Shown here: positions 22,581 through 59,732 of the stretch, in pieces
Position numbering within the stretch: the stretch's first letter is position 1
Layout of the letters: each line of letters opens with the position of its first letter
Source: Acidimicrobiia bacterium
GTDB taxonomy: Bacteria > Actinomycetota > Acidimicrobiia > Spongiisociales > JAHEDJ01
NCBI GenBank assembly: GCA_029210695.1
Contig: JARGFH010000006.1
Location: 29,005-93,004 of the forward strand
Length of the DNA stretch: 64,000 nt
Direction: 5' to 3'
Position numbers and translations under genes: made by a program
Notes under the pieces: model-generated
Seen by the model: only the letters and a program-made list of their open reading frames with translations
What the model was told of the DNA's origin: nothing
Databases searched by the model: none

Positions 22581-22581
22581 C

Positions 22582-32412: not shown

Positions 32413-32430
32413 GTGGCGCGCGTTGTGCGC

Positions 32431-35036: not shown

Positions 35037-35042
35037 GGCCGG

Positions 35043-36188: not shown

Positions 36189-36293
36189 CTCCCAACCTGG
36201 AACCATGACGTTTACGGGCTAGCCCTGAGGAGAAACGGTTTCGCCACCCAGCCGATGACCCGCACTTCCCTCTCGGGCCCTGGTTCCACCTCT

Positions 36294-41950: not shown

Positions 41951-42160
41951 GTGGCGCCCGATGTAAACACGAGCGACCTGATCGGTTCGGCCGAGGTGGC
42001 CGAGATCATCGGTCTCTCTCACACAACCAGCGTCACGACATATCTCAAGCGATACCCGGACTTCCCGAGGCCGGTTGTCGATCTGAGTAAGAGCCGAGTT
42101 CGGCTATGGAGACGACAGGACATTGTGGAGTGGTGCAAGCAGCGGTTGAAGAAGTCGTGA
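41951..42160 (+). CDS. small HTH DNA-binding protein (AlpA/Xis-like)
   Basis: 'IGSAEVAEIIGLSHTTSVTTYLKRYPDFPRPVV...RLWRRQDIVEW'. Confidence 0.5.
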   Translation: MAPDVNTSDLIGSAEVAEIIGLSHTTSVTTYLKRYPDFPRPVVDLSKSRVRLWRRQDIVEWCKQRLKKS

Positions 42161-42216
42161 CTCACGAGATCGTCGATGGGTCGGTGAGTGGTGGCCCCAG
42201 TACCAGCCAGACGATC

Positions 42217-42927: not shown

Positions 42928-43484
42928 GTTACGTCGACCAACTCGTCGAGGCCTACCGGAAGTTCGTGGCTCTCCCATGGCAGGAGAACCTGGCTCCTCC
43001 GCAACGGGTGTGGATGACCGTGTACCCACCTGAGCACGAGCGCCGACTACGACTCCATCTGCCCGCGTTCAAGGCGGCGACCACCGAACACAACCGAGCC
43101 TGGGCGCTGATCGACATCACCATCTCCTTCGAGCAGTGGATGGCCGACCACGAGTACCGAGACGCCTACTTCGAGGATCCCGAACTCTTGGAGACGGCAC
43201 TCCCTGCCTTCTTCGACCATCTTGTGGAGCATGTGCGAGCGCGTCTTGCTGAGCAACCAGATCCGAAGGGAGTTGTGGCAGTTCTCGGTGCGGGCACGCT
43301 GTTCGGTTTGGGTGACGCGGTCAAGGTGTCCGCTCTGCTCAACGCGGTCAATGATGCGGTCGCCGGCCGATTGTTGATCTTCTTTCCGGGTGAGCACGAG
43401 GGCAACAGCTATCGCCTCCTCGACGCCCGAGATGGATGGAACTACCTGGCGACGCCGATCACACCAAACGGGAGAAACGGATGA
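42924..43484 (+). CDS. brxB: BrxB-like (DUF1788) BREX protein
   Basis: 186 aa, translationally coupled between brxA and brxC. 'WMTVYPPEHERRLRLHLPAFKAA...' fits the DUF1788 size and pattern. Confidence 0.55.
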   Translation: MSYVDQLVEAYRKFVALPWQENLAPPQRVWMTVYPPEHERRLRLHLPAFKAATTEHNRAWALIDITISFEQWMADHEYRDAYFEDPELLETALPAFFDHLVEHVRARLAEQPDPKGVVAVLGAGTLFGLGDAVKVSALLNAVNDAVAGRLLIFFPGEHEGNSYRLLDARDGWNYLATPITPNGRNG

Positions 43485-46400
43485 CCATCACGAACAGGGA
43501 ACTCTTCCACCGGGACCCTACCGCCACGAAGATCCCCAACGACGGAGTGGCCAAGGTCGTCCGTCCCGAGACCGACCAGCAATGGGACGTCTTGCACTGG
43601 GAACTCCGGAGCTTCGTGTGCGATGGTCAGTACGCCCTCGGTCTTGAGCGGATACTCGACAGCTTCCTCAAGAACCTGACCCAATCAGAGCAGCCAGCCG
43701 TCTGGATCAGCGGGTTCTACGGGAGCGGCAAGTCGCACCTCGTCAGGGTTCTCGAGCACTTGTGGCGCGACGTGGAGTTGCCAGGCGGCGACCGCGCACG
43801 CGAGCTCGTATCGCTCCCGGAGGAGATCAGTGACCACCTGGTCGAGCTGTCAACCGAGGGCAAGCGCAACGGGGGCCTCTGGTCTGCTGCCGGCACGCTG
43901 GCATCAGGGAAAAGCGACGAGGTGCGCATCGCCTTCTTATCGGTGCTGTTCGAGGCAGCCGGGCTGCCAGAGCAGTACCCGCTGGCCCGCTTCATGATCT
44001 GGGCCAAGGAGATCGGTTATCTCGACCACCTCACCGAAGCAGTCACCCAAGCCGGCCGGACACTCGACAAAGAGATCCACGATCTCTACGTCTCACCTGT
44101 GATTGCGAAGGCACTCCTCGAAGCAGATCCGAGTCTCGGCGACACCGTGAAGGACGTTCGCGACCTTCTCAAGACGCAGTTTCCGCCTACCACCCGAGAC
44201 ATCGACCGTGACGAGATGCTCGACGTCATGGAACGGGTCCTTGCCTTCCAGTCGACCACAGACGGGAAGGTCCCGCTCACCTTGATCGTCCTCGATGAGA
44301 TGCAGCAATACATCGGTGATGACAACGAGAAAGCGATCACCGTTCAGCTGATTGCCGAGGACTGCTCGTCCCGCTTCGAGAACCAAGTCCTCATCGTTGC
44401 CACCGGCCAGAGTGCGCTGACGGCCACCCCAACCCTCCAGAAGCTCACGGAGCGGTTCACGGTGATGGTTCCGCTGTCCGACCAGGACGTTGAATCGGTG
44501 ATTCGCGAAGTCGTGCTCCGCAAGCGCCCGGAGTTCGTCCCGGAGCTCAAGTCCACCCTCGAGTCGGTGAGCGGCGAGATCGACAAGCACCTTGCAGGAA
44601 CCCAGCTTGCCCCGAAAGCGGCCGACAAGCCCGACCTCGTGCCGGACTACCCGCTCCTCCCCACGCGCCGCAGATTCTGGGAACTGGCGCTCCGAGCGAT
44701 CGACCGCGCCGGCAAGGCTGGCGTCCTACGAACTCAGCTTCGGATCATGCACGAGGCCGCGGCCCGGGTGGCCGGAGAACCGATTGGTCACGTGGTCGGC
44801 GCTGACTTCCTCTACGACGAGCAGGCCCCGGGCATGCTGCAGAGCGGGGTCCTTCTCAAAGAGATCGACGAACTGATCGCCACCATGCGCACCGAGGGCG
44901 CCGACGGCGAGTTGAAAGCCCGGATCTGCGCCCTGGCCTTCCTGATTTCCCAGATTCGCCCGAAGACCATTGGTGCGGAGGGGCTGCGTGCCACTGCCCC
45001 GTTCCTGGCAGACCTCCTCGTGGAAGACCTCGCCGATGACGGAGCGAAGCTGCGTAAGAAGGTGCCCGAGATGCTTGACGTCCTCGTAAAGGACGGGCGC
45101 CTGATGCGCATCGAGGACGAGTACCGGCTCCAGACGGAAGAAGGGGCCGAGTGGGAGAAGGAGTACAGCAGCCGTCTCGCCGCCATCCGCGACGACGCAA
45201 GCCGCATGAATCAGCTCCGCAGCGAACGGATCGTCGCTGCTGTGGACGGTGCGCTCAGTGGACTGAAACTCGCACAGGGAGCCAGTAAGACGCCCAGGAA
45301 GGTTCAGACATACTGGGGTCAAGACGAGCCGTCGACAGTCGACGGGGACGTCCCAGTGTGGATTCGCGACGAGTGGTCGGTGACGGAGTCAGCCGTCAAG
45401 AAGTCGGCCGCTGAAGCTGGGGACGAGAGTCCCGTCGTTTTCGTCCTCCTCCCCAAGCACGAAGCCGACCAGATCAAGGACGCCCTCGCCAGCTACGCCG
45501 CGGCCGAGGACACGCTACGAAGGCCCACACCGCAAACCGATGAGGGCAAGGAGGCACAGCGGGCGATGAAGACCCGTCTCGCTACCGACGACGAGCGGCT
45601 CAAATCGCTCTTCCAGGATGTCGCTGCCCGCGCCCGAGTATTCCAGGGTGGCGGCGCCGAGGTCACCACGTCGACGCTCCGCAGCGCCGTCGAGACCGCC
45701 GCCAACCGGTCACTGATTCGGCTCTTTCCGAAGTTCGGCGCCAGCGACAACGCCAACTGGGGGAAGGTGGTGTCCAAGGCGCGAGACGGCGCCCCAGACG
45801 CCCTCGCCGCTATCGGCCACCACGGCGAGCCGACCACGCACCCAGTGTGCAAGGAGGTGCTGGCTTCTGTCAGCCCGGGCGGTACCAAAGGCGCTGACCT
45901 GCACAAACGGTTCGCCGGATCCCCGTACGGCTGGCCCCGGGATGCCGTGAACGGGGCGATCCTCACGCTTCTTGCCGCGGGCCACATCCGAGCCGGCCAG
46001 GACGGAAAGGACCTCGCCGGACCCAAGGAGTTGCCTCCAACGCAGATTGGCAAGGTCACCTTGTACAAGGAAGACGAACCGCCGACGATGGGGCAACAGC
46101 TCGCAATAAGAAGCTTGCTCACCGCAGCCGGAGTCGCATATGAACCCAGCCAGGAAGGCGCGCAGATCCCGGCCCTCCTCCAGCGGCTCAAAGACTTCGC
46201 GGGGCGCTCTGGGGGTGCGCCACCGCTCCCCGAGTCACCCGATGTCGATCATATTGACGCCCTGCTAGCCCTGGGAGGCAACCAGCGGTTCCGCGCCGTG
46301 GCCGACGACCACGAACGACTCAGTCAGGAACTCGAACAATGGCGCGCCGCCGACCAGAAACGGGAAAAGCGGGAGGCGGAATGGCTTGACTTACAGCGTC

Positions 46401-46945
46401 TGGTCCGTCACGCCGCCGGGCTTCCAGTCGAGGGAGCAGTCCAGTCTGCGGTCTCGGCGATTCGTGATGGCCGTCAGCTTCTCGATGAGCCCAACCCGCT
46501 CTCACCAATCCTGGATGAGCTGGCCGACGCCCTCCGCTCGGACGTCTTAGGTCGCGCCGAAGAGCTCGCTGCTGCGCAGCGAGACGCCATCGCCGATCTC
46601 GAGACGTGGGAAGGGTGGAACGATCTCAGCCCAGGCGATCGCGAGTCGATCATCGCCGAGTCCAAGCTGAATCCCGCAGCCGCGCCAGACGTCGCCACCG
46701 ATGCTCAACTCCTCGACACACTCGATGCCACTCCCTTGAGCTCCTGGCAGGATCGGATCAGCCTTGTCCCGAGTCGGCGGGATCAAGCCCGCCACCGCGC
46801 CGCGACGAAGCTCGAGCCCGAAAGCGTTTCCATCGAGCTTCCGTCAGCGACCATCAAGTCCCCAGACGATCTTGACGCGTACGTCGACGAGCTACGCGCC
46901 AAGGTGCAGCCCCATCTCGATGCGGACAAGACGGTGATCATCTAA
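43481..46945 (+). CDS. brxC: BrxC/PglY-like large P-loop ATPase of BREX
   Basis: ~1150 aa. Walker A 'SGFYGSGKSHLV' near the N-terminus, Walker B 'LIVLDEMQQYI', and a long helical C-terminus. ATGA overlap with brxB. Confidence 0.8.
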   Translation: MTITNRELFHRDPTATKIPNDGVAKVVRPETDQQWDVLHWELRSFVCDGQYALGLERILDSFLKNLTQSEQPAVWISGFYGSGKSHLVRVLEHLWRDVELPGGDRARELVSLPEEISDHLVELSTEGKRNGGLWSAAGTLASGKSDEVRIAFLSVLFEAAGLPEQYPLARFMIWAKEIGYLDHLTEAVTQAGRTLDKEIHDLYVSPVIAKALLEADPSLGDTVKDVRDLLKTQFPPTTRDIDRDEMLDVMERVLAFQSTTDGKVPLTLIVLDEMQQYIGDDNEKAITVQLIAEDCSSRFENQVLIVATGQSALTATPTLQKLTERFTVMVPLSDQDVESVIREVVLRKRPEFVPELKSTLESVSGEIDKHLAGTQLAPKAADKPDLVPDYPLLPTRRRFWELALRAIDRAGKAGVLRTQLRIMHEAAARVAGEPIGHVVGADFLYDEQAPGMLQSGVLLKEIDELIATMRTEGADGELKARICALAFLISQIRPKTIGAEGLRATAPFLADLLVEDLADDGAKLRKKVPEMLDVLVKDGRLMRIEDEYRLQTEEGAEWEKEYSSRLAAIRDDASRMNQLRSERIVAAVDGALSGLKLAQGASKTPRKVQTYWGQDEPSTVDGDVPVWIRDEWSVTESAVKKSAAEAGDESPVVFVLLPKHEADQIKDALASYAAAEDTLRRPTPQTDEGKEAQRAMKTRLATDDERLKSLFQDVAARARVFQGGGAEVTTSTLRSAVETAANRSLIRLFPKFGASDNANWGKVVSKARDGAPDALAAIGHHGEPTTHPVCKEVLASVSPGGTKGADLHKRFAGSPYGWPRDAVNGAILTLLAAGHIRAGQDGKDLAGPKELPPTQIGKVTLYKEDEPPTMGQQLAIRSLLTAAGVAYEPSQEGAQIPALLQRLKDFAGRSGGAPPLPESPDVDHIDALLALGGNQRFRAVADDHERLSQELEQWRAADQKREKREAEWLDLQRLVRHAAGLPVEGAVQSAVSAIRDGRQLLDEPNPLSPILDELADALRSDVLGRAEELAAAQRDAIADLETWEGWNDLSPGDRESIIAESKLNPAAAPDVATDAQLLDTLDATPLSSWQDRISLVPSRRDQARHRAATKLEPESVSIELPSATIKSPDDLDAYVDELRAKVQPHLDADKTVII

Positions 46946-49900
46946 TGGCGAAGACGACACCGCTCTCGCCATCGTTGCGGAAGCAACTCGAAACGGCGAT
47001 CCTGGCTGGTCGCCGTGCTGCTGAGAGTGCATCACGGGCTGCGATCGATGGGTTGGGCGTGTTCGCGGATCGGCGACCCGAGCATCTCAACTCCGAGCAG
47101 GCGTCATTGCGGGTCGGGTTGCGGACCAAGTGGCGTCAACTGGGGGATGATCGAGAGCTGCTGATCGCCGAGTGTGCATATGAGCAGTGGCACCGGCTCC
47201 TGTTCGCCCGGTTCCTCGCCGAGAATCGGCTGTTGCTCCACCCTCAGTTCCGGGCGGCGGTGACGTTGGCAGAGTGTGAGGATTTGGCTCCGGAGTTGGG
47301 TGAGCCGGATGGCTGGTCGGTGGCGGCCCGGTTTGCCTCGGAGATCCTGCCTGGAATCTTCCGGGTGGATGATCCCTGTGTCCGATTGCGGCTGGCGCCA
47401 GAAGGACGGCATGCCCTCGAGGAGATCCTGGCGGGGATCCCGCCAGAGGTGTTCCAGGCTGGCGATTCCCTGGGGTGGGTGTATCAGTTCTGGCAGAAGG
47501 ACAAGAAGGACGAGGTCAACGCATCGGAGCGGAAGATCGGCGGAGCGGATCTGGGACCGGTTACGCAGCTGTTCACCGAGAACTACATGGTCCGATTCCT
47601 CTTGGAGAACTCACTGGGGGCGTGGTGGTCGGCGCGGCATCCCGACAGCCCGCTGGTTAAGGGCTTCGACTACCTCAGACTCGATGATGAGGGTCAACCA
47701 ACAGCGGGATCGTTTGACGGGTGGCCCGATCGAGCCGCTGAGGTGACCCTGATGGACCCGTGCTGTGGGTCGGGTCACTTCCTGGTAGAGGCATTTTCGA
47801 TGTTGTGGCGGATGCGGGCCGAGGAAGAGGGGCTCAGTCCGACCGACGCGCAGGATGCGGTGTTGCGGGACAACCTGTTCGGCCTGGAGTTGGATCCCCG
47901 GTGCGTCCAGATCGCCATGATGGCGGTGGCCCTGCAGGCGTGGAAGGCAGGGGACGGGTGGCGTGAGCTGCCGGTGCCGAACATCGCCTGTTCAGGTATC
48001 CCGGTGAAAGCCCCGGTAGACGAGTGGAAGGCTCTGGCGGAGGGTGATGAGCGCCTTGAGAGCGCCCTTATCCGTCTACACATCCTGTTCCGCGAGGCCG
48101 ACACCTTCGGCAGTCTGATCGAGCCCAAGCGGGCAACTGAGATCAGCGACCCCACCCAATTGCAACAGTCGTTCGAGGATGTGGAGTGGGACGCGGTCGC
48201 TCCCCTACTCGAGAAGGCCGCATCAAGGGAGAGTAACGACCCCGCAATCGCTGTGCTCGGCGCTGACGCTGCCAGCATCGCCCGGGCCGCCGACTACCTC
48301 AGCCGTCGCTACTCCCTCGTCGCGACCAATGTCCCATACCTCGGGCGTCAGTTCATGGAGCGGCATCTACGGGACTACTGCGACCGGTACTACTCCGACG
48401 CGGCGTTTGACATCGCAACATGCTTCGTTGATCGCATGTCTCGGATGGGGGCGGTCGGATCTACCCGCGCAGTAGTGCTGCCGCAGAACTGGTTGTTCTT
48501 GGGCAGCTACTCGAAGATCCGATGTCGCCTTCTGGACGAGCTGACGTGGGCAATGTGTGTCCGCCTCGGGCCGGGTGCGTTTGAGGAGATAAGTGGCGAG
48601 GTGGTTCAGGCAAGTCTTCTGATTGCCAACGCTGGACCGCCCGATCCCGGTCATGCAATGGCGCTCTTGGACGCTCGTTCCGAGCGGCCAGCAGCTAGGA
48701 AGGCGGAAGCACTCCGCGCGGGGGCGCCGTTGTTGATCGACCAAGGCACGCAGAGATCGAACCCGGATTGCGTTGTGGCTTTCGAACTGCTCGGCACTGG
48801 CCCGCTCTTGAGCGAGTACGCCGACAGCATCCAAGGTTTCATCACTGGCGACAACGAACGATTCCGACGGTTCTTCTGGGAGATCGGGTCGCTAACGAAC
48901 GACCTCAGCTGGGATCGTATTCAGACGACGGTGAACGTCACACGGGCGTATGGAGGGCGTTCGGAGTACATGCGCTGGGAGCAAGGCCACGGGCACCTGG
49001 CGACTAGCCCGCAAGCGCGGGTCCAAGGGCTCCAGGCACGCGGTCGGCGCGGGGTCGCGCTCGCGCGGCTAGGCCAGCTCCCGGCGACTCTGTTCGATGG
49101 TGACTTCTTCTCAGACGCCGTCGGTTTGGTCGTGCCTCGCAACGAAGCCGACCTCCGCGCGGTTTGGGCGTTCTGCAGCTCGGATAGCTATTCGGCGGCT
49201 GTTCGAGCGATCAACACGAAGCTGAGCGTCGCAAACGCAACTCTCGTCAAAGTGCCATTCGACATCGACCACTGGCGCACGGTCGCCGAGGGCGCTGGTC
49301 CTCTACCGGAGCCGTGGTCGGACGATCCGACGCAGTGGCTATTCGAGGGCCGTCCGGAGTTGTCGACGGCCTCCTTGCAGGTGGCGGTAGCGAGGTTGGT
49401 GGGGTATCGCTGGCCAGAACAGCCACAGTCGGACGATCTCGAAGGGTTCGCCGACTCGGATGCGATTGTGTGCTTGCCGTCGGTGGCAGGTGAACCCCCT
49501 GCGGCCGATCGGGTGCACCGTCTGTTGGCGACGGCCTACGGGGAGGCCTGGTCGCCGGCCATGGTTAAGCGACTCCTGGAGGCGTCAGGCTCGAAGAAGA
49601 CGAGCTTGCCGGGTTGGCTGCGGGATGACTTCTTCAAACAGCACTGCGCCCTATTCGGGAACCGCCCGTTTGTCTGGCACATCTGGGATGGACAGCGTGA
49701 CGGGTTCTCGGCGTTCGTGAACTACCACCGGCTGGATCGTAAGAACCTTGAAAAGCTGACCTACACGTATCTGGGCACAGATTGGGTGGAGCGGCAGAAG
49801 GCTGAGGTGCGTGATGAGGTGGCAGGGGCGGAGGCCCGGTTGGTGGCTGCGCTGGAGCTGCAGGCCAAGTTGGAGCAGATCCTGGAGGGAGTTGCACCGT

Positions 49901-50142
49901 TCGATGTCTATGTCCGGTGGAAGGAACTGCATGAGCAGCCAATCGGGTGGGAACCTGATCTCAACGACGGGGTGCGGCTCAACATCCGTCCCTTCGTCGA
50001 GGCCGGGGTGCTGCGCTCCAAGTTCAACATCCACTGGCGTAAGGACCGAGGCAAGAACCCGGACGGGTCGGAGCGCCACAACGACGTCCAGCTCACCCTT
50101 ACCGACAAACGAACCGCACGCCAGAAAGCCGGCAAGCAATGA
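46945..50142 (+). CDS. pglX: PglX N6-adenine DNA methyltransferase of BREX
   Basis: Motif I 'LMDPCCGSGHFLVEAF' and motif IV 'LVATNVPYLG' (an NVPY variant of NPPY). ~1065 aa. Start overlaps the brxC stop (TAATG). Confidence 0.85.
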   Translation: MAKTTPLSPSLRKQLETAILAGRRAAESASRAAIDGLGVFADRRPEHLNSEQASLRVGLRTKWRQLGDDRELLIAECAYEQWHRLLFARFLAENRLLLHPQFRAAVTLAECEDLAPELGEPDGWSVAARFASEILPGIFRVDDPCVRLRLAPEGRHALEEILAGIPPEVFQAGDSLGWVYQFWQKDKKDEVNASERKIGGADLGPVTQLFTENYMVRFLLENSLGAWWSARHPDSPLVKGFDYLRLDDEGQPTAGSFDGWPDRAAEVTLMDPCCGSGHFLVEAFSMLWRMRAEEEGLSPTDAQDAVLRDNLFGLELDPRCVQIAMMAVALQAWKAGDGWRELPVPNIACSGIPVKAPVDEWKALAEGDERLESALIRLHILFREADTFGSLIEPKRATEISDPTQLQQSFEDVEWDAVAPLLEKAASRESNDPAIAVLGADAASIARAADYLSRRYSLVATNVPYLGRQFMERHLRDYCDRYYSDAAFDIATCFVDRMSRMGAVGSTRAVVLPQNWLFLGSYSKIRCRLLDELTWAMCVRLGPGAFEEISGEVVQASLLIANAGPPDPGHAMALLDARSERPAARKAEALRAGAPLLIDQGTQRSNPDCVVAFELLGTGPLLSEYADSIQGFITGDNERFRRFFWEIGSLTNDLSWDRIQTTVNVTRAYGGRSEYMRWEQGHGHLATSPQARVQGLQARGRRGVALARLGQLPATLFDGDFFSDAVGLVVPRNEADLRAVWAFCSSDSYSAAVRAINTKLSVANATLVKVPFDIDHWRTVAEGAGPLPEPWSDDPTQWLFEGRPELSTASLQVAVARLVGYRWPEQPQSDDLEGFADSDAIVCLPSVAGEPPAADRVHRLLATAYGEAWSPAMVKRLLEASGSKKTSLPGWLRDDFFKQHCALFGNRPFVWHIWDGQRDGFSAFVNYHRLDRKNLEKLTYTYLGTDWVERQKAEVRDEVAGAEARLVAALELQAKLEQILEGVAPFDVYVRWKELHEQPIGWEPDLNDGVRLNIRPFVEAGVLRSKFNIHWRKDRGKNPDGSERHNDVQLTLTDKRTARQKAGKQ

Positions 50143-52466
50143 GCGAGACGGTGCGCGATCGTCTGGCTGGCCGTCTCGGAGAGGCTCTCGAGTACAACGC
50201 CAACGCGTTTGCGCCCCCGGTGGCGCTGCTATGGCCGGATGAGGGTCGCCATTGGCAGCAGGTGATCCCTCGAATCGCCAAGGAGCGACCGGTGCTGACG
50301 CTCGGCCCATTCGACCCCGACGCGAATCGGGGACCCGCGTATTGGATTCGGTGTGTGGTTGCTGGCACGGTCGAGACCCACCTTCCGGACGGAATCCCGG
50401 TGGTCTACCTCCCTGGGGTCGGTCGGAACTCGCTCCGTGCCGTCGAATCGTGTCCCTCGGACCTTGCGCCCATCGCCGAGCTTCAGTACCGGAGCCAGTG
50501 GTTCTCACACCCGAACGGCCGCGATTGGACGGCCTGGGCCTTGCTGTCGCATGCCGAATATGGCCTCGGGCTTCGCATCACTGATAGCGCAGATGCGGTG
50601 AGCGCGCTCCAGCTCGCCCTTGATCGGCTGATGGACGAGCGGATCGATCGGCTGGAGCGGCTGGTACTCGATGCCGACTTTTTCCACGATCTGGTCAATC
50701 CCGATCCGGTGCGCAGCCTGCTCGGTTGGCTCGATGACCCGATCGACTTCAGGTCACGATTCGACGAAGCGCAATGGAGCGCGTTCCTGCAGCAGTGCAA
50801 AGCCGACTTCGGGTTCGACCCGACGCTCGATGGCGAGATCAGCGCCGCGCGCAAGCTCGGAGATCGGGAGGAAAAGTGGGGCGAGGTATGGAAGCGCTTC
50901 GCCGAGACGCCGGAGCGGTATCCGGGGATCCCCGAGCAACTCCGCAAGGCCAGGCCCCAAGAGCAGCTCACCCTTGGGGAACAAGGACACTCCGAAAGCT
51001 GGCCGCAGGACAACGAAGCAGCCGAGAAGGACCTGCGCCAACGTTTGAAGGGATTCGACAGCCTCACACCGGAGGCTGCGCGCACAGAGATAGTGAAGCT
51101 TGAAGCCTCTCATGCATGGCGGCGCAGCACCATCTGGGCCGACCTAGACCACGCCCCCCTTGCTTTTGCCCTGGAGCAGCTTGCTGCCCTAGCAGACCTA
51201 GCTATGCAGCCCCTGGCGACGGATGGTCTGACCGAACTCATCCGGGACTATGTAGACCGGGGATGGAGGGCGGACGACGCTGCCCTGCGGGCCTTGAAGG
51301 CGGTCGAGTCCGGGCCAGACCGGGAGGCGGTCGCAGTGACAATGGACGCCCTTTATCGGCCGTGGATCGATGAGGGAGCCAAGACGCTCCAGTCGATCAT
51401 CGGCCCTATGGCCAACTCCGGTACCTACGAGACCGGCGCGCCCGCCAGTCCTGCCCCAGGGACCGTCACAGTGTTCATCGACGGCCTTCGCTTGGACATC
51501 GCTCACCGGGTGAGGGAGCGGTTGGCCGCCGTGGGCCTTGACGTCGATGCCGGCATAAGCCTCGCGGCGTTGCCCACCGTCACGCAGACCGCCAAGCCGG
51601 TCCTTGCTCCAATCCCTCGGGGTGCCCTGACGGCGGGCCCCGACTTGCATCCGGCGAATTCGGTCACCGGTACGAGGGCGTCAGTCCAGGTGCTGCGCTC
51701 ACTGATGAAGGACAACGGGGTCCAAGTGCTCGACTCGACTGATGTCGGTGACCCAACCGGTACGGCATGGGCTGAGGCCGGTGAGATCGACCATCGAGGC
51801 CACGATGTCGGCAGTCGTCTCGTCGACTACCTCGATCAGGAGGTGGATCGGATCGTGGGGCGGGTCCGCGAGTTGCTAGAAGCAGGCTGGCAGAGAGTCG
51901 AGGTGGTGACCGATCACGGGTGGATACTCCTTCCCGGCGGGCTGGAAAAGGTCGATCTCCCTCCGGCCACGACCGAGGTCAAGAAGGGTCGATGCGCCCG
52001 CCTCAAGGCGGGGTCGGTCGTCGAGACGCCGACGGTGCCATGGTTCTGGGATCAGGACGTCCGGATCGCCATCGCGCCTGGCGTCACATGCTTCGAGGCC
52101 GGCAAGGAGTACGAGCACGGCGGCGTCAGCCCCCAAGAGTGCATCGTTCCTCGGCTCACCGTGACCGTCGGTGTGTCCCCGATGGCCACCGATGGACCGG
52201 AGATCACGTCAGTCAAGTGGCTGGGTCTGCTGTGCCGAATCGAGCTGACCGGTGCCGGCTCAGGTGTGATCGCGGATCTTCGGGCACTTCCTGCCGATCC
52301 AAAGACCTCCATCGCCGAAGAGGCCAAAGAGACATTCCGCGAGGGCAAGGTTTCGCTGATCGTCCCCGACGAAGAACACGAGGGCGAGCCAGCACACCTG
52401 GTACTGGTCGGTCCCGATGGTCAGATCCTGGTCCAGCGCCAGCTGATAGTGGGGAGAAACCGGTGA
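50139..52466 (+). CDS. pglZ: PglZ alkaline-phosphatase-superfamily protein of BREX
   Basis: Conserved PglZ N-terminus ('VALLWPDEGRHWQQVIP') and a C-terminal phosphatase-like 'VEVVTDHGWILLPGG'. ATGA overlap with pglX. Confidence 0.8.
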   Translation: MSETVRDRLAGRLGEALEYNANAFAPPVALLWPDEGRHWQQVIPRIAKERPVLTLGPFDPDANRGPAYWIRCVVAGTVETHLPDGIPVVYLPGVGRNSLRAVESCPSDLAPIAELQYRSQWFSHPNGRDWTAWALLSHAEYGLGLRITDSADAVSALQLALDRLMDERIDRLERLVLDADFFHDLVNPDPVRSLLGWLDDPIDFRSRFDEAQWSAFLQQCKADFGFDPTLDGEISAARKLGDREEKWGEVWKRFAETPERYPGIPEQLRKARPQEQLTLGEQGHSESWPQDNEAAEKDLRQRLKGFDSLTPEAARTEIVKLEASHAWRRSTIWADLDHAPLAFALEQLAALADLAMQPLATDGLTELIRDYVDRGWRADDAALRALKAVESGPDREAVAVTMDALYRPWIDEGAKTLQSIIGPMANSGTYETGAPASPAPGTVTVFIDGLRLDIAHRVRERLAAVGLDVDAGISLAALPTVTQTAKPVLAPIPRGALTAGPDLHPANSVTGTRASVQVLRSLMKDNGVQVLDSTDVGDPTGTAWAEAGEIDHRGHDVGSRLVDYLDQEVDRIVGRVRELLEAGWQRVEVVTDHGWILLPGGLEKVDLPPATTEVKKGRCARLKAGSVVETPTVPWFWDQDVRIAIAPGVTCFEAGKEYEHGGVSPQECIVPRLTVTVGVSPMATDGPEITSVKWLGLLCRIELTGAGSGVIADLRALPADPKTSIAEEAKETFREGKVSLIVPDEEHEGEPAHLVLVGPDGQILVQRQLIVGRNR

Positions 52467-54913
52467 GCGACCTCGACCAGCTCGACCAACTCGCCGCTCA
52501 GGTGTTCGAGGGTTACCTGGTCCGCAAGGATCTTGCCCAGCAGTTCCGCGGCCAGTACCCGGTGCCGACATACGTTGGCGAATTCCTGCTGGGTCGATAC
52601 TGCGCCACGACCGACCCCGACGAGATTGCCGAGGGGTTAGCGATCGTCGAGCGTTCCATGAAGGAGCGGACCGTCCGCGCCGGGGAGGAGGAGCTCTTCA
52701 AGTCGCGGGCACGGGAAAAGGGCCGGGTCAAGATCATCGATCTTCTCCGAGCGAAGCTCGACGCCAAAGCAGATGCCTACAAGGCAGAGATGCCCAGCCT
52801 CCAGCTCAGCGGCATCCACATCTCCGACGAGCTGGTCAACGAGCACGACCGCATGCTCACCGGCGGCTTCTATGCCGAAGTCACACTCGAGTACATCGCC
52901 GCTCTGGGCCGGGAGTCGGGAGGTCAGCCGTTCCGGGTCGAGGCGGTTCGGCCGATCCAGATGTCCACCAGGGACGCCTTGGACACGTTCGTCGCCGGCC
53001 GAAAGCGGTTCACGCTCGAGCAGTGGCGGCACCTGTTGCTACGTAGCGTCGGCTTCGAGCCCGATCGGTTCACGCCGCGGGAACAGGACGTGCTCTTGGC
53101 ACGCATGGTTCCGTTCGTCGTTCCCAACTACAACGCTGTCGAGCTGGGCCCACGTGGGACCGGCAAGTCCCATCTTTTCCAGCAGATCTCGCCATATTCC
53201 CACCTAGTTTCTGGGGGCAAAGCGACCGTCGCCAACATGTTCGTGAACAACACGACGGGCCGCAGGGGCCTCGTTGCTCAGTACGACGTGGTCTGTTTCG
53301 ACGAGGTGGCCGGCGTGTCGTTCGATACCAAGGAGGGGGTCAACATCCTGAAGGGCTACATGGAGGCGGGCGAGTTCAGCCGCGGCAAGGAGAGCATCCG
53401 CGCTGACGGCGGCATTGTCATGGTTGGCAACTTCGACGTCGACGTGGTCGAGGAGTTGCGACAAGGGCACCTGTTCGGTCCAATGCCCAAGGAGATGCGG
53501 GACGACACGGCGTTTCACGACCGGATCCACTCTTACCTGCCGGGATGGGACGTGCCCAAGCTCCACCCGTCCTACTTCACCGACCACTTCGGCTTCGTCA
53601 GCGACTTCCTCGCCGAGTGCTGGAGTCAGGTTCGTCGCACCTCGCGGCTGGACGTCACCCAGGGTCGGCTGTCGTGGGGCAGCCAGCTGAGCGGGCGAGA
53701 CCGCAAGGCGGCCGATAACACGGTCAATGGATTGCTGAAACTCCTTTGGCCTGACCCGGAGATGGACGTATCGGACGAGGCGCTTGCCTGGGCTGCCGAG
53801 CTTGCGCTGGAGCTTCGTCGCCGCGTCAAGGAGCAGCAGGCATTCATCGGCGCCGCTGAGTTTGGGAAGGTCGACCTGAGCTACCGCATCGGTGACGGTC
53901 CCGAGAAAGTTGTTTACTGCGAGGAGAGCGTCCGTCACCGACTTCGAATGGAATCCGAGGAGAAGGCTGGCGGGCCTGAGAGAACGCCGTCGCTGCCGAT
54001 CCCCGAGCCAGACGAAGTCACAACTGGCAGCGCGGCAAGGCACTACGCACCCGGTGACGAGATCGACGGACGTTTCGAGGTTCTTGAGGTGCTCGGCGAG
54101 GGTGGCTTCTCCAGGGTCTACAAGGTCGTTGATCTCGTGGAAGGCGAACAGCGGGCCTTGAAACTGTTCGAGAGCGCCGCCGGCTATGAGGCGGTCCGTC
54201 GTGAGATCGGCGCTTTGCGCATGGTCCATCACCCCAATGTCGTTACGGTCTTCTGGGCCGACAAGACCGCGGACGGGGACTGGTACCTCGTTTCGGAGTT
54301 CATCGACGGCGAGTCACTGGAGGAGTACACGTCGGGCGACCGACACCTTCGGGATCGAGAGGCGATCGACGTGGCACTCGACGTGCTCGATGCGCTGGTG
54401 GCCATTCACCCCGACGCCGTCCGTCTCTCAGAGCTTGAGGAGAAGCGCCGGGGCGGTGAGCTGTCTCAGGACGAGTACTACGAGATGCAGGAGCTGCAAG
54501 AGCACGGCCTCGTCCACCGAGACATCAAGCCCCTGAACATCATCCTCACCCGCCAAGGAGCCAAGCTGCTCGACTTCAACATCGCATCCCGAGTCGGTGA
54601 CCCCGTGAAGACCCTGTCGGGGACACCCCCGTATCAGGCCCCGGATGCCGACTACACCCGGTGGGACGTGACGACGGATTTGTTCGCCGTCGGAGTCGTC
54701 TTGTACGAGCTGCTCTGCAACGGAGAGCACCCGTACCCCGGTGGCAAGCCCATGGTTGGCGAAGCAGTTCGAGATCCACGGTCGGTCCGCCCTGATCTCA
54801 GCGCCGACCTGGCGAAGTTCCTCGTCAAGGCGTGCGCACCAGCTCGCAGTGATCGATTCATCACCGCTCAGGAGATGAAGGGCGCGCTCGAGGAAAGTCG
54901 AGCTACCGGGTGA
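52463..54913 (+). CDS. brxL: BrxL-like AAA+ (MCM/Lon-related) ATPase fused to a C-terminal Hanks-type Ser/Thr protein kinase domain
   Basis: GTG start overlapping the pglZ stop (GTGA). The N-terminal ~480 aa match BrxL ('YVGEFLLGRYCATTDPDEI', Walker A 'ELGPRGTGKSHLF', 'VVCFDEVAGV', 'RELALELRRRVKEQ'). The C-terminal ~290 aa (from ~54030) carry kinase subdomains: 'LGEGGFSRVYKV', 'ALKLF', 'HRDIKPLNIIL', 'DFN', 'GTPPYQAPD'. No Lon S16 protease domain is present. Confidence 0.8.
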   Translation: MSDLDQLDQLAAQVFEGYLVRKDLAQQFRGQYPVPTYVGEFLLGRYCATTDPDEIAEGLAIVERSMKERTVRAGEEELFKSRAREKGRVKIIDLLRAKLDAKADAYKAEMPSLQLSGIHISDELVNEHDRMLTGGFYAEVTLEYIAALGRESGGQPFRVEAVRPIQMSTRDALDTFVAGRKRFTLEQWRHLLLRSVGFEPDRFTPREQDVLLARMVPFVVPNYNAVELGPRGTGKSHLFQQISPYSHLVSGGKATVANMFVNNTTGRRGLVAQYDVVCFDEVAGVSFDTKEGVNILKGYMEAGEFSRGKESIRADGGIVMVGNFDVDVVEELRQGHLFGPMPKEMRDDTAFHDRIHSYLPGWDVPKLHPSYFTDHFGFVSDFLAECWSQVRRTSRLDVTQGRLSWGSQLSGRDRKAADNTVNGLLKLLWPDPEMDVSDEALAWAAELALELRRRVKEQQAFIGAAEFGKVDLSYRIGDGPEKVVYCEESVRHRLRMESEEKAGGPERTPSLPIPEPDEVTTGSAARHYAPGDEIDGRFEVLEVLGEGGFSRVYKVVDLVEGEQRALKLFESAAGYEAVRREIGALRMVHHPNVVTVFWADKTADGDWYLVSEFIDGESLEEYTSGDRHLRDREAIDVALDVLDALVAIHPDAVRLSELEEKRRGGELSQDEYYEMQELQEHGLVHRDIKPLNIILTRQGAKLLDFNIASRVGDPVKTLSGTPPYQAPDADYTRWDVTTDLFAVGVVLYELLCNGEHPYPGGKPMVGEAVRDPRSVRPDLSADLAKFLVKACAPARSDRFITAQEMKGALEESRATG

Positions 54914-55027: not shown

Positions 55028-57526
55028 ATGTGGCGCCGCGTTGATCTGCACAACCATACATTCCCAAATGAAACCTGCGACACAGAGTGGGACCCAGATC
55101 ACTTCGTCGCGTCCTGTGCTGATGTGGGCATCGACGTCATCGCAGTCACTGACCACGACACGTGCGATCGCGTGGCTGACGTCGTGGCTGCCGCCGGCGA
55201 CGTCGTCCACGTAGTTCCCGGTGTCGAACTCACTACTGACAGAGGGCACATCATCGCTCTTGGGCCCGGTGATGGGGGCCTGGCGATCGTCGAGGAGCTT
55301 CTCACCCGAGTAGGCGCGAGGCCCGGAGAGCAGGTCGATCTGCTTCGGCTGTTTGAGGCGCTCTCTGAGAATTGCAGCACTGGGCAGCCCTTCGCCTCGG
55401 CCATCGTGGTCATCGGAGCCCACGTCGATATGGACGGTCAGCTGCTCGGCTCTCCGAATTCGTTGAGTATCGAACGGCAACTTCGGTACGCCGGTCAGCT
55501 AGATGCTCTAGAGGTGGCCCGTGACGAGGTATTCGCCGAGTGGGTCCGCACTGGCGTGAAACAGGGACCGCACATGACCCTCCTGCGCGGTTCAGACGCT
55601 CATGATCCGGAAAACCGCAGAGATGTTGGGCAGTGGCTTTACCTTCCTGAGCTGTCGGCGGCGGCGTTCCATCACGCTCTGGCTCTGCCTGAGGCTTCCG
55701 TCAGGTACGAACAGCCCGATCCACCGCCAACATGGGTTATCGAGGCGGTCGAGTTTGACGGCGGCATGCACGAAGGGCATGTGTTCGCCTTCTGCGAACG
55801 AACCAACGCCGTCATCGGCCCACCAAACTCTGGGAAGTCGCTGCTCATCGACGCGCTGAAGTTCGCGTTCGGTATCGCCTGTGACCTAGACGAGGTCGAG
55901 GCCATCACGAAGAACCGAATGGCGAAGTGCCTACCGGCCGGGACGATCATATCCGTACGGCTACGCACAGCCGACGGACCGACCACTATCACGCGAACGG
56001 TGGGAGGTGCCGAAAGCCCCGACCCCCCATTTCAGCCGATTGTGTTCAGCCAGACTGAATTGACCCGACGTGCGCACGAGCCACGGCCGAGCATTCGACT
56101 GCTCGACGTGCACTGCCCCGATGCTGCCTCTATGAAGATCAGCCTATCGGAGGTACAAGGTGAGGTTGTCGATCTGTTCGTGAGGCTCGTCGCTGATGCC
56201 AAAGAGATCCGTCGTCTGGCCGGGCTCATCGGCAACACTGAGGATGGGCTGGCAGCAACGCGTAACCGGCTGCAGAACTTGGCCGGCACAGAGGAAGTCG
56301 CACAGACTGCCACGGCGACCTCCCGGGTTGGTCGGTGGCGCGCCAGCACACGGGAGCGCCTCGAAATGTGGCGTGATGAAGCCGAGCCACCAAGTCCGGA
56401 CGTACCCCGAGTGCCTGACGGCGTTGCTGGCCACGAAACGCTGGCTCCGCTGGTCCCCGGCGATCGGCTCACCGCTGCCATTGAGGCCTATGAACGGGAG
56501 GCTCGCGAGCTGATAGCCCGCCACGCCGAGTTGATGCTGAGTTCACTGGATGAGAGATCAGCTGACTTCGAGGCCATGAGTCGGGACGTGGTGGCGAAGC
56601 TTGCCGAGGCCGGCTTCAGTGAAGGATCGGAAGTGGAGATCGAGCTGAAGCGACTCCGAGATCGTCTACACGAAATGGAGGAGCTGGATGAACAGCGTCG
56701 CGAACTCGAAGAGGCTCTGGACGCTGATCTTGTGAACCTTCGCAATCTCATCCAGCGTGCCGCGGAGCTGCGATCCGCGCTAACCCGGGTTCGCAAGGAG
56801 GCTTGCACCCGGGTCAATGCCTCGATGCGCACCTTCTTCGCCCTGATCGACGGCGAGGGCGCCGCGGGCCGTCTTGATGAGATTATCAATGATCTGAAGA
56901 TCGGGACGTACATGCGGCCTGAGACCCGGAAGAAGATACGGGAGGAGCTTGACCGGCCAGCGCTACTTGAACAAGCAGTACGGCTCGCACAAGGTCGATT
57001 GACGGACACCGACGACGCATCGGACCAGGAGAGACTGGTTAGCCAAGCGATGGAGCGTGAGCGCCACCAGGATCTGGCGAGGCTTGCGACGACGTGGCCC
57101 GGAGACGGCCTTGATCTCCGAAAGAAGGGTGGCAGCGGCGCCGACACAGCGTCGTTCAATGAGCTGACGGAAGGGCTGCGCGCCCTGGCCATCAAGGAGA
57201 TCTCGTTCGCGGCATCCGAGCTTCCGGTTGTCACGGACCAACCGGAGGACGCAGTCCCGACCCGCGCCGTCTATGACAGCCTTGTACCAACTCTGCGCGA
57301 GCAGCGTGCAATCAGACAATTCATCGTCGTCAGTCACGACGCCAACCTTGTAGTTGCCAGCGACATGGAAAGCGTGACGGCCTTGGAGGGAGCCGATGAC
57401 GGAAGCCCGTACAGCGGATCCCTATTCGATCGCCGCATTCGGGACCTCGCTCTGGAGCACCTGGAAGGCGGAATCGAGGCGTTCGATCGCCGAGCCACGC
57501 GCTACGGACGACCTCTACCCGCGTGA
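55028..57526 (+). CDS. Ppl-like protein: N-terminal PHP phosphoesterase domain + SMC/RecF-type ABC ATPase with coiled coil
   Basis: PHP motifs 'DLHNHT', 'IAVTDHD' and 'HVVPGVELTT'. Walker A 'IGPPNSGKSLLIDALKFAFG'. A long charged coiled-coil region. C-terminal Walker B/D-loop 'RQFIVVSHDANLV'. Confidence 0.65.
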   Translation: MWRRVDLHNHTFPNETCDTEWDPDHFVASCADVGIDVIAVTDHDTCDRVADVVAAAGDVVHVVPGVELTTDRGHIIALGPGDGGLAIVEELLTRVGARPGEQVDLLRLFEALSENCSTGQPFASAIVVIGAHVDMDGQLLGSPNSLSIERQLRYAGQLDALEVARDEVFAEWVRTGVKQGPHMTLLRGSDAHDPENRRDVGQWLYLPELSAAAFHHALALPEASVRYEQPDPPPTWVIEAVEFDGGMHEGHVFAFCERTNAVIGPPNSGKSLLIDALKFAFGIACDLDEVEAITKNRMAKCLPAGTIISVRLRTADGPTTITRTVGGAESPDPPFQPIVFSQTELTRRAHEPRPSIRLLDVHCPDAASMKISLSEVQGEVVDLFVRLVADAKEIRRLAGLIGNTEDGLAATRNRLQNLAGTEEVAQTATATSRVGRWRASTRERLEMWRDEAEPPSPDVPRVPDGVAGHETLAPLVPGDRLTAAIEAYEREARELIARHAELMLSSLDERSADFEAMSRDVVAKLAEAGFSEGSEVEIELKRLRDRLHEMEELDEQRRELEEALDADLVNLRNLIQRAAELRSALTRVRKEACTRVNASMRTFFALIDGEGAAGRLDEIINDLKIGTYMRPETRKKIREELDRPALLEQAVRLAQGRLTDTDDASDQERLVSQAMERERHQDLARLATTWPGDGLDLRKKGGSGADTASFNELTEGLRALAIKEISFAASELPVVTDQPEDAVPTRAVYDSLVPTLREQRAIRQFIVVSHDANLVVASDMESVTALEGADDGSPYSGSLFDRRIRDLALEHLEGGIEAFDRRATRYGRPLPA

Positions 57527-57597: not shown

Positions 57598-59271
57598 TCA
57601 ACGTGGCACCCAGCTCCATCGCCCTCTCCGGCTTCCGTACCAGGGCCGGAGGTGGAGACGAGCTGGGTGAAAGTTCCCGTAGACGAGGACACCGGTGCCG
57701 GTGTTAGAGCGGCGGAGGTCGGCGGTGGTGGCGAGGGGTCGATGCCGGGTGGATTCGGTGACGCTCTCTCGTCCGTCTGCGTTGCGGGTGCGGGAGTTCT
57801 CGAGGGTGGTTTCGTCGCCGATGAGTCGGCTGATGTAGTCGAGGGTTGGGGTGTCGGAGATGCCGGCGAGGACGACCTTGGCCCGGTGGTTGTTGATGAC
57901 GGTTTGGGCGAAGGTGCCGTAGCGGGCCTGGATCTGGGCGAAGTCTTGCCAGACGGTGACGAGTTGGATCCCCACCCCGCGGGCGGTGGAGGCGAGTTGG
58001 GCGAGGTCGGGGAGGGGGGCGATGTTGGCGGCCTCGTCGATGACCAGCAGGAGGGGTTTGGTGAGTCGGCTGCTGGCCCGGTTGGCGCGGTCGTAGACCC
58101 GGGCGACTATCTGTTCGATGAGGGCGGTGAACAGTGGCCGGAGGCGGGCTTGTTCGTGGAGGGGCCCACAGATGTAGAGGGTGTGGTTGCCGCCGTCGAG
58201 GAGCCGGTCGGGGTCGATGATTGGTTGGCGGATCGTGGTGGCGAGGACTCCGGGGTCTGAGAAGGCGGCGAGGACGGTTTCGGCTGTGGTGTAGGCGGAG
58301 GACCGGGTGCGTTCTTCCCGGTTGATCGACGCGGCGAATGCTTGGAGGGCGTCGATCTCTTTCGCCTGGTGGAGGGCTTGGAGGGGTTCTTGTTCGTCTT
58401 GGAGGTCGACCCAGCGGATGACGTCGGCCATGCCGGCGCTGCTGGTGGCGGCGGCGTAGAGGAGGGGTGCGAGGAGTTTCTGGGCGACGGCGTACCAGAA
58501 GTCGGAGTCTTGGAGTCCGCCTCGTTCTCCGGCTCGGGCGGTGGAGGCGAGCCAGGCGGCCATGCGTAGGGCTCCCTGCCAGTCGTGGGCTGAGTGGAGC
58601 GGTGACCAGCCGGCGGAGGGTTCGTCTGTCGATCCGACCGGGTCGAATACCCAGGTTTCGCCGACGGAGCGACGCTGGTTGATGGTGTGTTCGAGGAGGT
58701 CGCCTTTGACGGAGGTGGCGATGACGGGTCCGTCCCATTCGAGGAGGGCGGGGATGGCGAAACCGGTGGTCTTTCCGGTGCCGGCTGGTCCGATCACGGC
58801 GACGGAGTGTTGGGCTTCGGTGGCGACGAGTCTTCGCTGGACGGTGCCGAGGGTGAGGCGTCCGGGTTGGGGTCTGCGGACGAGGAGAGGTTTGAGGTCG
58901 CCGGGTTTGGCCCATCGGGCGGAATCTCCATCTGACGAGTTTCGATGCCGGTCGTGCCAGCGGTAGCCGACCGCGCCGACGGCGGCCAGGACGGCGACGA
59001 GAACGGTGAGAGCGGCGTAATAGGGGAGCGGCGCCGGAAGCAGGTGGGTGACGGCGGGTGGCCAGGATTCGTTGGGTCTGGCCGGATTGGTGAGGAGTCT
59101 CCAAACGATGAGAGGGCCCTCGGAGAGAGGAACGGGCAGCCACGTGCCGCTCCAGAGACGGGCAGCGACCTGGCCGGCGGCCCACACCACCGCGCACGCC
59201 GCTACCACGGCGGCGGTGACGATGGTCAGAACCTTTTCGCCGTCGGGGTTGGCAGATGCCGGGTGGGTCAT
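57598..59271 (-). CDS. type IV coupling protein (TraD/VirD4/TcpA-like T4CP)
   Basis: N-terminal TM helices and Walker A 'VIGPAGTGKTTGFAIPALLEW'. The ORF extends to 59361, but the Met at 59271 gives a 4-nt coupling with the upstream gene. Confidence 0.85.
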   Translation of the reverse strand: MTHPASANPDGEKVLTIVTAAVVAACAVVWAAGQVAARLWSGTWLPVPLSEGPLIVWRLLTNPARPNESWPPAVTHLLPAPLPYYAALTVLVAVLAAVGAVGYRWHDRHRNSSDGDSARWAKPGDLKPLLVRRPQPGRLTLGTVQRRLVATEAQHSVAVIGPAGTGKTTGFAIPALLEWDGPVIATSVKGDLLEHTINQRRSVGETWVFDPVGSTDEPSAGWSPLHSAHDWQGALRMAAWLASTARAGERGGLQDSDFWYAVAQKLLAPLLYAAATSSAGMADVIRWVDLQDEQEPLQALHQAKEIDALQAFAASINREERTRSSAYTTAETVLAAFSDPGVLATTIRQPIIDPDRLLDGGNHTLYICGPLHEQARLRPLFTALIEQIVARVYDRANRASSRLTKPLLLVIDEAANIAPLPDLAQLASTARGVGIQLVTVWQDFAQIQARYGTFAQTVINNHRAKVVLAGISDTPTLDYISRLIGDETTLENSRTRNADGRESVTESTRHRPLATTADLRRSNTGTGVLVYGNFHPARLHLRPWYGSRRGRWSWVPR

Positions 59272-59732
59272 CGGCCGATGCCACCTTGCCGGGTCTCTCG
59301 GTGTGGCCGGCGGTGGTCGGTGTCGAGGGCGCGGAGGAGCGGGATTTGACAGGCGCCGCATCGGCAGGCACGCGGGGTGGGTTGGGTCCAGGCGTCGGGC
59401 CAGTAGGGGATCGTGGTGACACAGGGTGTGCAGAGGGCGTGGCTGCCGAGCAGCGGGATGAGCGTGTATTCGTCGTCGACGGGGATCTGGCTGTTACACA
59501 GGTCACAGATCCACAGGCTGTTGTCGTCGGGGACGCTGCTGATGATGACCACGCCGAGACGTTCCATCTCCTCGCGGATGCCGGCTTCGGCGGCGACACG
59601 GCGCCGGTAGGTCTCGCGGTGGGCGGCGGGTCGGACTATGAACCGCAACTCGTTCCGACACGGCTCGCAGAGACCCTGAGGTGTGAGGCGAGCCGACGTG
59701 TCGCAGCTTCGGCAGGTGTCGTTGGAGTTCAT
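59268..59732 (-). CDS. Cys-rich protein with four CxxC pairs (two putative zinc ribbons)
   Basis: 'CRSCDTS...CEPCRNE', 'CDLCNSQ', 'CTPC', 'CRCGAC'. ATG at 59732. It sits in the conjugation operon with 4-nt overlaps on both sides. Confidence 0.5.
   Translation of the reverse strand: MNSNDTCRSCDTSARLTPQGLCEPCRNELRFIVRPAAHRETYRRRVAAEAGIREEMERLGVVIISSVPDDNSLWICDLCNSQIPVDDEYTLIPLLGSHALCTPCVTTIPYWPDAWTQPTPRACRCGACQIPLLRALDTDHRRPHRETRQGGIGR

Follow-up and report, generated by a model that had tools for sequence, protein, structure and literature searches.

Type 1 bacteriophage exclusion (BREX) systems are encoded by an operon of the order brxA-brxB-brxC-pglX-pglZ-brxL. The last gene encodes BrxL, which in its canonical form has an N-terminal DNA-binding region, an MCM-like AAA+ ATPase with Walker A and B motifs, and a ring-dimerising, Lon-like tail of approximately 180 amino acids (aa) (PDB 8EMC/8EMH; TIGR02653). 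In the Acinetobacter BrxL, no protease motif is present in this C-terminal domain (aa 498–679), which holds a pair of rings, each a hexamer or heptamer, together tail to tail (PMC10164562). A 2026 survey of BREX systems described the Lon-like tail as inactive, and listed Lon-like and HKD C-termini for the BrxL of type 1 and no C-terminal extension for that of type 4; of 2913 taxa with BrxL, 1030 had an HKD endonuclease instead of the Lon-like domain (PMC12839542). Type 1 BREX has been stated to contain no kinase homologue (PMC9009780). How type 1 BREX stops phage is not yet settled, least of all what BrxL contributes. We analysed a stretch of 64,000 nucleotides (the window) from contig JARGFH010000006.1 of a metagenome-assembled genome (MAG) of an Acidimicrobiia bacterium, in which a type 1 BREX operon ends in a gene (brxL::kinase; 52463–54913, plus strand) whose product carries a Hanks-type Ser/Thr kinase where the Lon-like tail is expected. 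An identical protein is deposited at NCBI as MDF1595134.1, 'MAG: BREX system Lon protease-like protein BrxL [Acidimicrobiia bacterium]', a name that is uninformative and conceals the kinase.

The brxL::kinase gene was translated as a single open reading frame (ORF) of 816 codons with zero internal stops. Its start codon is a GTG that overlaps the stop codon of pglZ (GTGA) and is preceded by a Shine-Dalgarno-like stretch (GGGGAGAAACC). The gene was assigned with Pfam, NCBIfam and PADLOC models and by comparison of protein clusters. As in canonical BrxL, an N-terminal DNA-binding region (BrxL_N, aa 13–144; 52499–52894; Pfam PF20442, E = 8.8e-44) is followed by an MCM-like AAA+ ATPase (aa 157–472; 52931–53878; Pfam PF13337, E = 2.6e-119), and both aligned to 8EMC. 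The Lon-like tail is instead replaced by a 30-aa linker, including the leader of the kinase cassette (aa 505–535; 53975–54067), and a kinase domain of approximately 280 aa (aa 536–812; 54068–54898). The Pfam Pkinase profile matched aa ~539–800 (E = 4e-32), and a Pfam scan of the protein detected no Lon_C domain. The 449-aa BrxL model TIGR02688 (NCBIfam) was matched above its cutoff (444 bits; cutoff 329), as was the PADLOC BrxL model with 705 bits. In contrast, the 675-aa model of Lon-type BrxL, TIGR02653, aligned only from profile position 3 to 471 and scored 503 bits, below its cutoff of 628.

The catalytic residues of both modules were conserved in an alignment of 40 homologues. In the ATPase, the Walker A motif (G229-P-R-G-T-G-K-S236; 53147–53170) and D280 of the Walker B motif (D275...D280) were invariant, and E281, the counterpart of the Walker B residue E280 that was mutated in the study of the Acinetobacter BrxL, was nearly invariant (at least 90%). 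In the kinase, the G-loop (G545-x-G547-G548-F-S), K567 of the A-L-K motif, E581 of helix alpha-C, the catalytic loop (H685-R-D-I-K-P-L-N692), D704-F-N706 and P727-D728 of the APD motif were all invariant. The kinase is of the RD type, and its short activation loop has conserved Thr/Ser residues (T717/S719 as proposed phosphosites). Between helix alpha-E and the HRD catalytic loop, a clade-specific helical insertion of approximately 30 aa (aa 650–681; 54410–54505) split every kinase-profile alignment. The AlphaFold model of the full-length protein was poor (mean predicted local distance difference test score (pLDDT) 56, with the N-terminal 380 aa below 50 and the linker also low), having been built on a shallow alignment of 40 sequences at least 79% identical, and only its kinase half was usable; there the insertion was modelled as two helices (aa 652–664 and 669–681). 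By its motifs, the domain is a complete and apparently active RD Hanks kinase. The original prediction, made from the DNA letters, of an AAA+ module with a Walker A motif followed by a complete Hanks kinase in place of the Lon domain was thus borne out. The two checks that it had proposed, for a C-terminus without a match to kinase profiles and for a frameshift hiding a separate kinase gene, were run; the Pkinase profile scored 112 bits against a gathering cutoff of 31.7, and the reading frame was uninterrupted here and single in all related protein clusters described below.

The closest kinase-free BrxL proteins were 62–68% identical to the fusion protein over aa 1–488, were approximately 680 aa long and ended in Lon_C. 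They were encoded in Bacteroidota and Methanothrix (MAGs among them), in Myxococcales and on Deinococcus plasmids. The fusion and the Lon-type proteins ran parallel through the stretch '...RRRVKEQQ..IG.AEF....SYR.G', after which similarity was lost at about residue 490–505; tblastn matches to the Lon-type relatives stopped at aa 488–511 of the fusion protein. The solved structure 8EMC aligned with aa 5–481 (E = 4e-122), ending just ahead of its own C-terminal domain. Since the alignment stops there and the missing tail joins rings and is not a protease, the kinase replaces a structural module exactly at a domain boundary. This boundary had been predicted near residue 520, and the break does fall in that region, but it extends over about aa 490–535 and is not a point.

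The Lon-type BrxL of the PglZ type-B BREX-1 lineage (PADLOC PDLC02506) is encoded in the same gene order as in the window, and on a plasmid of Deinococcus sp. NW-56 the Lon-type brxL adjoins an annotated PglZ type B gene. The other BREX proteins of this Lon-type lineage were just 28–46% identical to their counterparts in the window. In the individual loci (L012–L054, compared with 42106–53975 of the window), the N-terminal and ATPase module of BrxL was 62–66% identical, and PglZ (29–41%), BrxC (23–37%) and PglX (38–50%) were far more diverged. The conservation of the BrxL module reflects either an unusually strong constraint or the swapping of brxL modules among BREX operons. Many of the Lon-type relatives (L012–L053) also had a gap of ~2–4 kb between pglX and pglZ (e.g. 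with pglX ending near 5500 and pglZ starting near 7670), which suggests an extra gene that the operon in the window is without.

The operon upstream of the fusion has the order brxA-brxB-brxC-pglX-pglZ-brxL with all genes co-oriented on the plus strand, and all six products matched PADLOC BREX models. For brxA (42157–42927; PADLOC BrxA PDLC02450, E = 4e-76), the longest ORF begins at ATG 42106; the PADLOC alignment begins at residue 28 of this long ORF, and GTG 42157 is most likely the start. It is followed by brxB (42924–43484; PADLOC BrxB, E = 1e-65; Pfam BrxB, E = 1.3e-5) and by the P-loop ATPase gene brxC (43481–46945; NCBIfam NF033441, 746 bits, cutoff 400; PADLOC, 1342 bits). The longest brxC ORF starts at 43436 and the coupled ATG is at 43481, with NF033441 aligned from residue 19 of the long ORF. 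The N6-adenine DNA methyltransferase gene pglX (46945–50142) matched the PADLOC PglX model PDLC02528 over its full length (1274 bits) and the Pfam families N6_Mtase, MmeI_Mtase and Eco57I; its score with the NCBIfam BREX-1 PglX model NF033452 was 354 bits against a cutoff of 500. The pglZ gene (50139–52466) is of the BREX-1 'type B' (NCBIfam NF033450, 822 bits, cutoff 400; PADLOC PglZ, 850 bits). By these matches the operon is a complete type 1 BREX operon, assigned to the PglZ type-B lineage, and is predicted to be functional. The original claim of an intact six-gene operon was confirmed by the PADLOC matches and by the gene order kept in related genomes. Its claim that every junction is translationally coupled also stood (brxA/brxB GTGA, brxB/brxC ATGA, brxC/pglX TAATG, pglX/pglZ ATGA, pglZ/brxL GTGA), but the second of these junctions takes the brxC start at 43481 and not 43436, and brxA likely starts at 42157.

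An ORF of 69 aa (41951–42160, plus strand) directly precedes brxA, its TGA stop codon (42158–42160) overlapping GTG 42157 as GTGA. By eye, its product has the look of an excisionase/MerR-type helix-turn-helix protein. Against Pfam, HTH_17 covered the whole profile but only at E = 0.18, and nothing was matched at E <= 0.001. Tentatively, this candidate helix-turn-helix gene could add a regulator as the seventh member of the operon, placed where other BREX loci have BrxR. Promoter and terminator scans at both ends of the operon found none, with a consensus of the sigma-70/E. coli type that may not suit this organism.

The fusion is neither a one-off nor an assembly artefact, but belongs to a conserved family present in many Actinomycetota genomes. 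Among the best 120 protein clusters (clustered at 90%; 79–100% identical), the architecture of BrxL_N, BrxL_ATPase and Pkinase was found in 120 of 120, each time as a single ORF with a length of 813–842 aa. A pattern scan of one genome per species located the fusion in Acidimicrobiia, several Solirubrobacterales, a Dormiibacterota MAG and Egibacteraceae, as well as in the isolates Micromonospora sp. CPCC 205371 and Sphaerisporangium sp. B11E5. It was absent from all 297 BrxL-bearing plasmids in PLSDB. In eight loci with uninterrupted genes (L002–L009), the whole operon from brxA to brxL::kinase was syntenic, compact and contained within 10 kb; the gene order of L001 and L004 was identical up to the contig ends. 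Across L001–L009, identity to the window was 85–93% for the BrxL module, 66–87% for the kinase and 50–84% for the other BREX proteins, and all catalytic kinase residues were kept although the kinase domain had diverged to this extent. The ratio of nonsynonymous to synonymous substitution rates (dN/dS, Nei-Gojobori) over ten fusion genes was 0.06 for the BrxL module, 0.10 for the kinase and 0.24–0.27 for the kinase insert and the linker (0.27 for the latter), values that are rough since dS was near saturation. The fusion kinase is clearly under purifying selection.

In three further loci on MAG contigs (L010, L011 and L040, at about 10001–12460 each), the fusion gene was split into two or three frames, and two of the three carry names hinting at long-read assembly. 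These broken frames are probably sequencing errors or pseudogenes in decay, for which reason we set aside the idea that they represent a 'split' ancestral state.

By sequence, the closest solved structure to the fusion kinase was PknB (E = 9e-25), and the well-modelled C-terminal half of the AlphaFold model had Foldseek template modelling scores of 0.75–0.82 to PknB and PknA. The fusion kinase was ~27% identical to PknB-type Hanks kinases and, like them, is an RD kinase with all catalytic residues. It differs from PknB in the 30-aa helical insert, the DFN and APD motifs, the shorter activation loop and the lack of a transmembrane or PASTA region. Three signatures characterised it: the insert of ~30 aa from helix alpha-E ('AIH') to 'GLVHRD', DFN for DFG, and 'GTPPYQAPD' for the APE motif. 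All three recurred in the second (active) kinase of proteins of 1228–1406 aa that passed the NCBIfam cutoff for MAD6. The window kinase was 48–49% identical to these second kinases. Pfam scans of two such proteins (P0207 and P0258) showed a NERD domain and tandem kinases, and another (P0223) was encoded in an operon of the methylation-associated system MADS, beside an N6 methyltransferase, a specificity subunit and MAD7. Experiments have established MADS as a defence system that depends on mad6 (preprint 10.1101/2023.03.30.534895). The MAD6 model NF047741 was also the top NCBIfam kinase match of the fusion protein, with 182 bits, below the cutoff of 460, and an alignment to the N-lobe of the second kinase alone. 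The insert before HRD, the DFN motif and the GTPxYQxPD motif are thus common to MAD6 and the fusion kinase, whereas the fusion is without the NERD nuclease, the first (pseudo)kinase and the C-terminal P-loop region of MAD6, and its operon differs.

The original prediction took the kinase as a sign of a hybrid with type 2 BREX, in which PglW is likewise a Hanks kinase within a BREX-family system. This origin did not hold up. The PglW model NF033442 gave 80 bits against a cutoff of 990, with only its active-kinase region (positions 505–765) aligning, to aa 529–808, and no NERD domain was found in the fusion protein by Pfam and NCBIfam scans. The pseudokinase and the C-terminal DNA-binding/sensor domains of PglW (architecture as in PMC12839542) are also lacking. 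Compared with type 2 BREX, the operon in the window has brxA, brxB and brxL and is without brxD and brxHI. PglW as the source of the kinase was therefore ruled out by model scores and architecture, and the nearest relatives were the MAD6-type kinases and a kinase cassette that appears to be mobile.

Kinases nearer to that of the window (62–70% identical) carry a leader of the form 'LPEPDPAEV..S...A..YA.GD'. In P0134 (L061, 8001–10598), P0135, P0133 and P0139, this cassette was located C-terminally on an Sll1717-family P-loop ATPase, a receiver domain, another kinase and a protein with a proline-rich N-terminus. The window kinase was 69% identical to the kinase of another BrxL fusion (P0121), which is no closer than to the cassette kinases of non-BrxL carriers and argues for a mobile cassette. 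On these comparisons, the fusion kinase appears to come from a mobile, defence-associated cassette, of which the active kinase of MAD6 is the best-characterised relative.

An exhaustive search of 50% representatives recovered three more diverged clusters of BrxL-kinase proteins (P0123, P0165 and P0140), in all of which the helical insert was absent. P0123 (789 aa) is encoded in a PglZ type-B operon; its kinase was 36% identical to that of the window, has the DFN motif and probably shares ancestry with it. P0165 (764 aa) is encoded in a PglZ type-A operon; its kinase shared just 25% identity with that of the window, keeps the classical DFG and APE motifs and has a shorter C-lobe. Because this unrelated DFG/APE kinase is fused to BrxL in a PglZ type-A operon, BrxL acquired a C-terminal kinase on at least two independent occasions. 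The kinase of P0140 was akin to that of P0165 and lies in an atypical locus (L060). The 1090-aa product called 'PglZ' there (3511–6783) consisted of a C-terminal PglX remnant (aa 490–606) and a PglZ type-B-like C-terminal part, and no intact pglX was present in the locus, which may be a decayed or rearranged BREX locus. It had been considered for a kinase-tailed type 4 BREX on account of the seeming lack of pglX, a reading that was dropped given the PglX remnant (NCBIfam) in the 'PglZ' call. Enzymatic tails of another kind are found in the BrxL-HKD variants, in which, as in the fusion, the N-terminal and AAA+ parts are kept and the Lon-like tail is exchanged for an enzyme; that enzyme is a DNA-directed phospholipase-D/HKD endonuclease, the tail of the fusion a protein kinase (PMC12839542).

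The fusion is a real and conserved domain swap within the well-known BREX type 1. As to its mechanism, we infer activation by oligomerisation, the identity of the substrates and a need for the kinase in restriction. We give roughly even chances to a reading in which the kinase tail of a BREX-1 BrxL serves as an output slot, with ring assembly on foreign DNA triggering a phosphorylation that blocks the phage. The marking of self DNA and the recognition of BREX sites that lack methylation would fall to PglX, BrxC, PglZ and BrxB, as they do elsewhere in type 1 BREX, and BrxL would be licensed to form a hexameric ring on the foreign DNA. Since BrxL forms hexamers on DNA in an ATP-dependent manner (PMC10164562), ring assembly is a plausible kinase trigger. 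The ring would gather six kinase domains and allow trans-autophosphorylation of their short activation loops (T717/S719); the active kinase would then block phage development by phosphorylating either proteins on or close to the incoming DNA or those of the host or of BREX itself. The BrxL C-terminus would accordingly be an exchangeable slot for an inert Lon fold, an HKD nuclease or a kinase. Phosphorylation-based signalling had been suggested originally; because the same BrxL position carries an HKD nuclease elsewhere (PMC12839542), an effector role seems at least as likely.

Several points weigh against this output-slot reading. We found no experiments on any member of the BrxL-kinase family in the literature. 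The kinase has DFN for DFG and APD for APE, substitutions that are tolerated in active kinases and that keep the aspartates, which leaves its activity probable. The AlphaFold model (mean pLDDT 56) is uninformative on the placement of the kinase relative to the ring. Without the Lon-like domain, the ring-ring dimer interface of the Acinetobacter BrxL is lost. The kinase cassette also occurs in loci without evident defence context, such as that of P0134, whose neighbourhood contained no obvious defence genes, and a generic regulatory role may be possible.

A regulatory phospho-switch is a rather unlikely alternative. The kinase would act on BREX itself (BrxL, PglX, BrxC or PglZ) to license or restrain restriction, and PglZ with its phosphatase fold would erase the marks, in the way suggested for the PglW/PglZ pair of the Pgl system. 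There, PglW autophosphorylates and is thought to control PglX, and PglZ is a putative phosphatase (summarised in PMC9009780). In keeping with such a switch, the fusion gene always lies directly behind a translationally coupled pglZ, and the RD-type kinase keeps its activation-loop Thr/Ser. However, the PglZ of type 1 BREX is reported to be a metal-dependent nuclease and not a protein phosphatase (PMC12205998; PMC12839542). A switch is also not required, since type 1 systems work without a kinase, and the nuclease effector at the same BrxL position in other lineages argues for an output.

Stk2 of staphylococci is activated by a phage protein. A comparable role of the fusion kinase, as an infection sensor that detects a phage protein and then switches BrxL on or triggers growth arrest, is improbable. 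The greater variability of the kinase relative to the BrxL module, and dN/dS values that were highest in the insert and the linker, would fit a phage-facing surface, but dN/dS was far below 1 throughout. The fusion protein moreover contains no dedicated sensor domain, and BREX already tells self from non-self by methylation.

Bacterial Hanks kinases dimerise, and the kinase fold could merely oligomerise BrxL (e.g. as PknB-like back-to-back dimers), with catalysis being irrelevant. The canonical C-terminal domain that it replaces is a non-catalytic dimerisation module (PMC10164562). Yet a scaffold would not keep K567, E581, H685-R-D, N692, D704 and the G-loop invariant in 40 sequences, which makes such a purely structural substitute very improbable. 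An artefact, in which a frameshift, misassembly or miscall joined two genes, has a negligible probability: the window does derive from a MAG and the related MAG loci L010, L011 and L040 have broken frames, but the ORF is uninterrupted and the 120 best clusters, isolates included, share one architecture and length.

The BREX operon is cargo of a conjugative element, in which the defence genes lie between the genes for the relaxase and the coupling protein. Pfam and NCBIfam matches identified an ArdC-N/DnaG-type primase (36294–38243, minus strand) and a MobF/TrwC relaxase-helicase (38705–41824, plus strand) on the brxA side. Beyond brxL::kinase, the minus strand encodes a type IV coupling protein (57598–59361), an M23/SLT hydrolase (60056–61258), a TrbL/VirB6 protein (61255–62751) and a VirB4-like ATPase (62748–63998). 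Directly downstream of the fusion gene, an 832-aa protein (55028–57526, plus strand) combines an N-terminal PHP/CehA-type metallohydrolase domain with an SMC/AAA ATPase. It scored below the model cutoffs for TrlF (198 bits; cutoff 350) and for the anti-phage protein Ppl (101 bits; cutoff 1000) and may be a second defence gene. Membership in the BREX system was ruled out for this gene, which was absent from all related fusion loci.

Elsewhere in the window, G+C dips to 0.58–0.59 at 32000–36200, compared with 0.62–0.68 in the remainder. This region encodes a DUF4238 protein (32431–33456, minus strand) and two ORFs of 381–440 aa without a Pfam match, and may be separately acquired cargo. The region 22000–32000 showed strong swings in GC/AT skew (GC skew from +0.16 to −0.18) at a high G+C of 0.66–0.675. 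A 1122-aa ORF (28638–32006, plus strand) had a weak LysM match only; long ORFs on the opposite strand overlap with it, and its coding strand is uncertain.

A full-text literature search found no paper describing a BrxL-kinase fusion; subscription papers, including Goldfarb et al. 2015, were outside its reach. The text and available supplements of the 2026 survey do not mention a BrxL-linked kinase (PMC12839542). The original view of the fusion as uncharacterised therefore stands as far as published descriptions go, but the fusion is not unique, as a populated family is already present in the databases. Domain databases will show the BrxL-kinase architecture implicitly.

Together with the HKD variant, the fusion presents the BrxL C-terminus as an exchangeable position for enzymatic output, and it connects BREX with MADS and Pgl, two methylation-associated systems that contain kinases. 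The cultured carriers Micromonospora sp. CPCC 205371 and Sphaerisporangium sp. B11E5 make direct testing possible. The fusion family could serve as a natural reporter, in which autophosphorylation or substrate phosphorylation could show when BrxL is licensed. A further-reaching and rather doubtful possibility is a DNA-templated platform, in which BrxL rings on unmethylated DNA would switch on phosphorylation and restriction would proceed through the phosphorylation of phage or host proteins and not through an attack on DNA. If this were true, type 1 BREX would gain a kinase partner for the phosphatase-fold PglZ and with it a mechanistic link to Pgl and MADS. BrxL, having captured kinases at least twice, would have a modular output, and the fusion family would be usable to read when and where BrxL activates.

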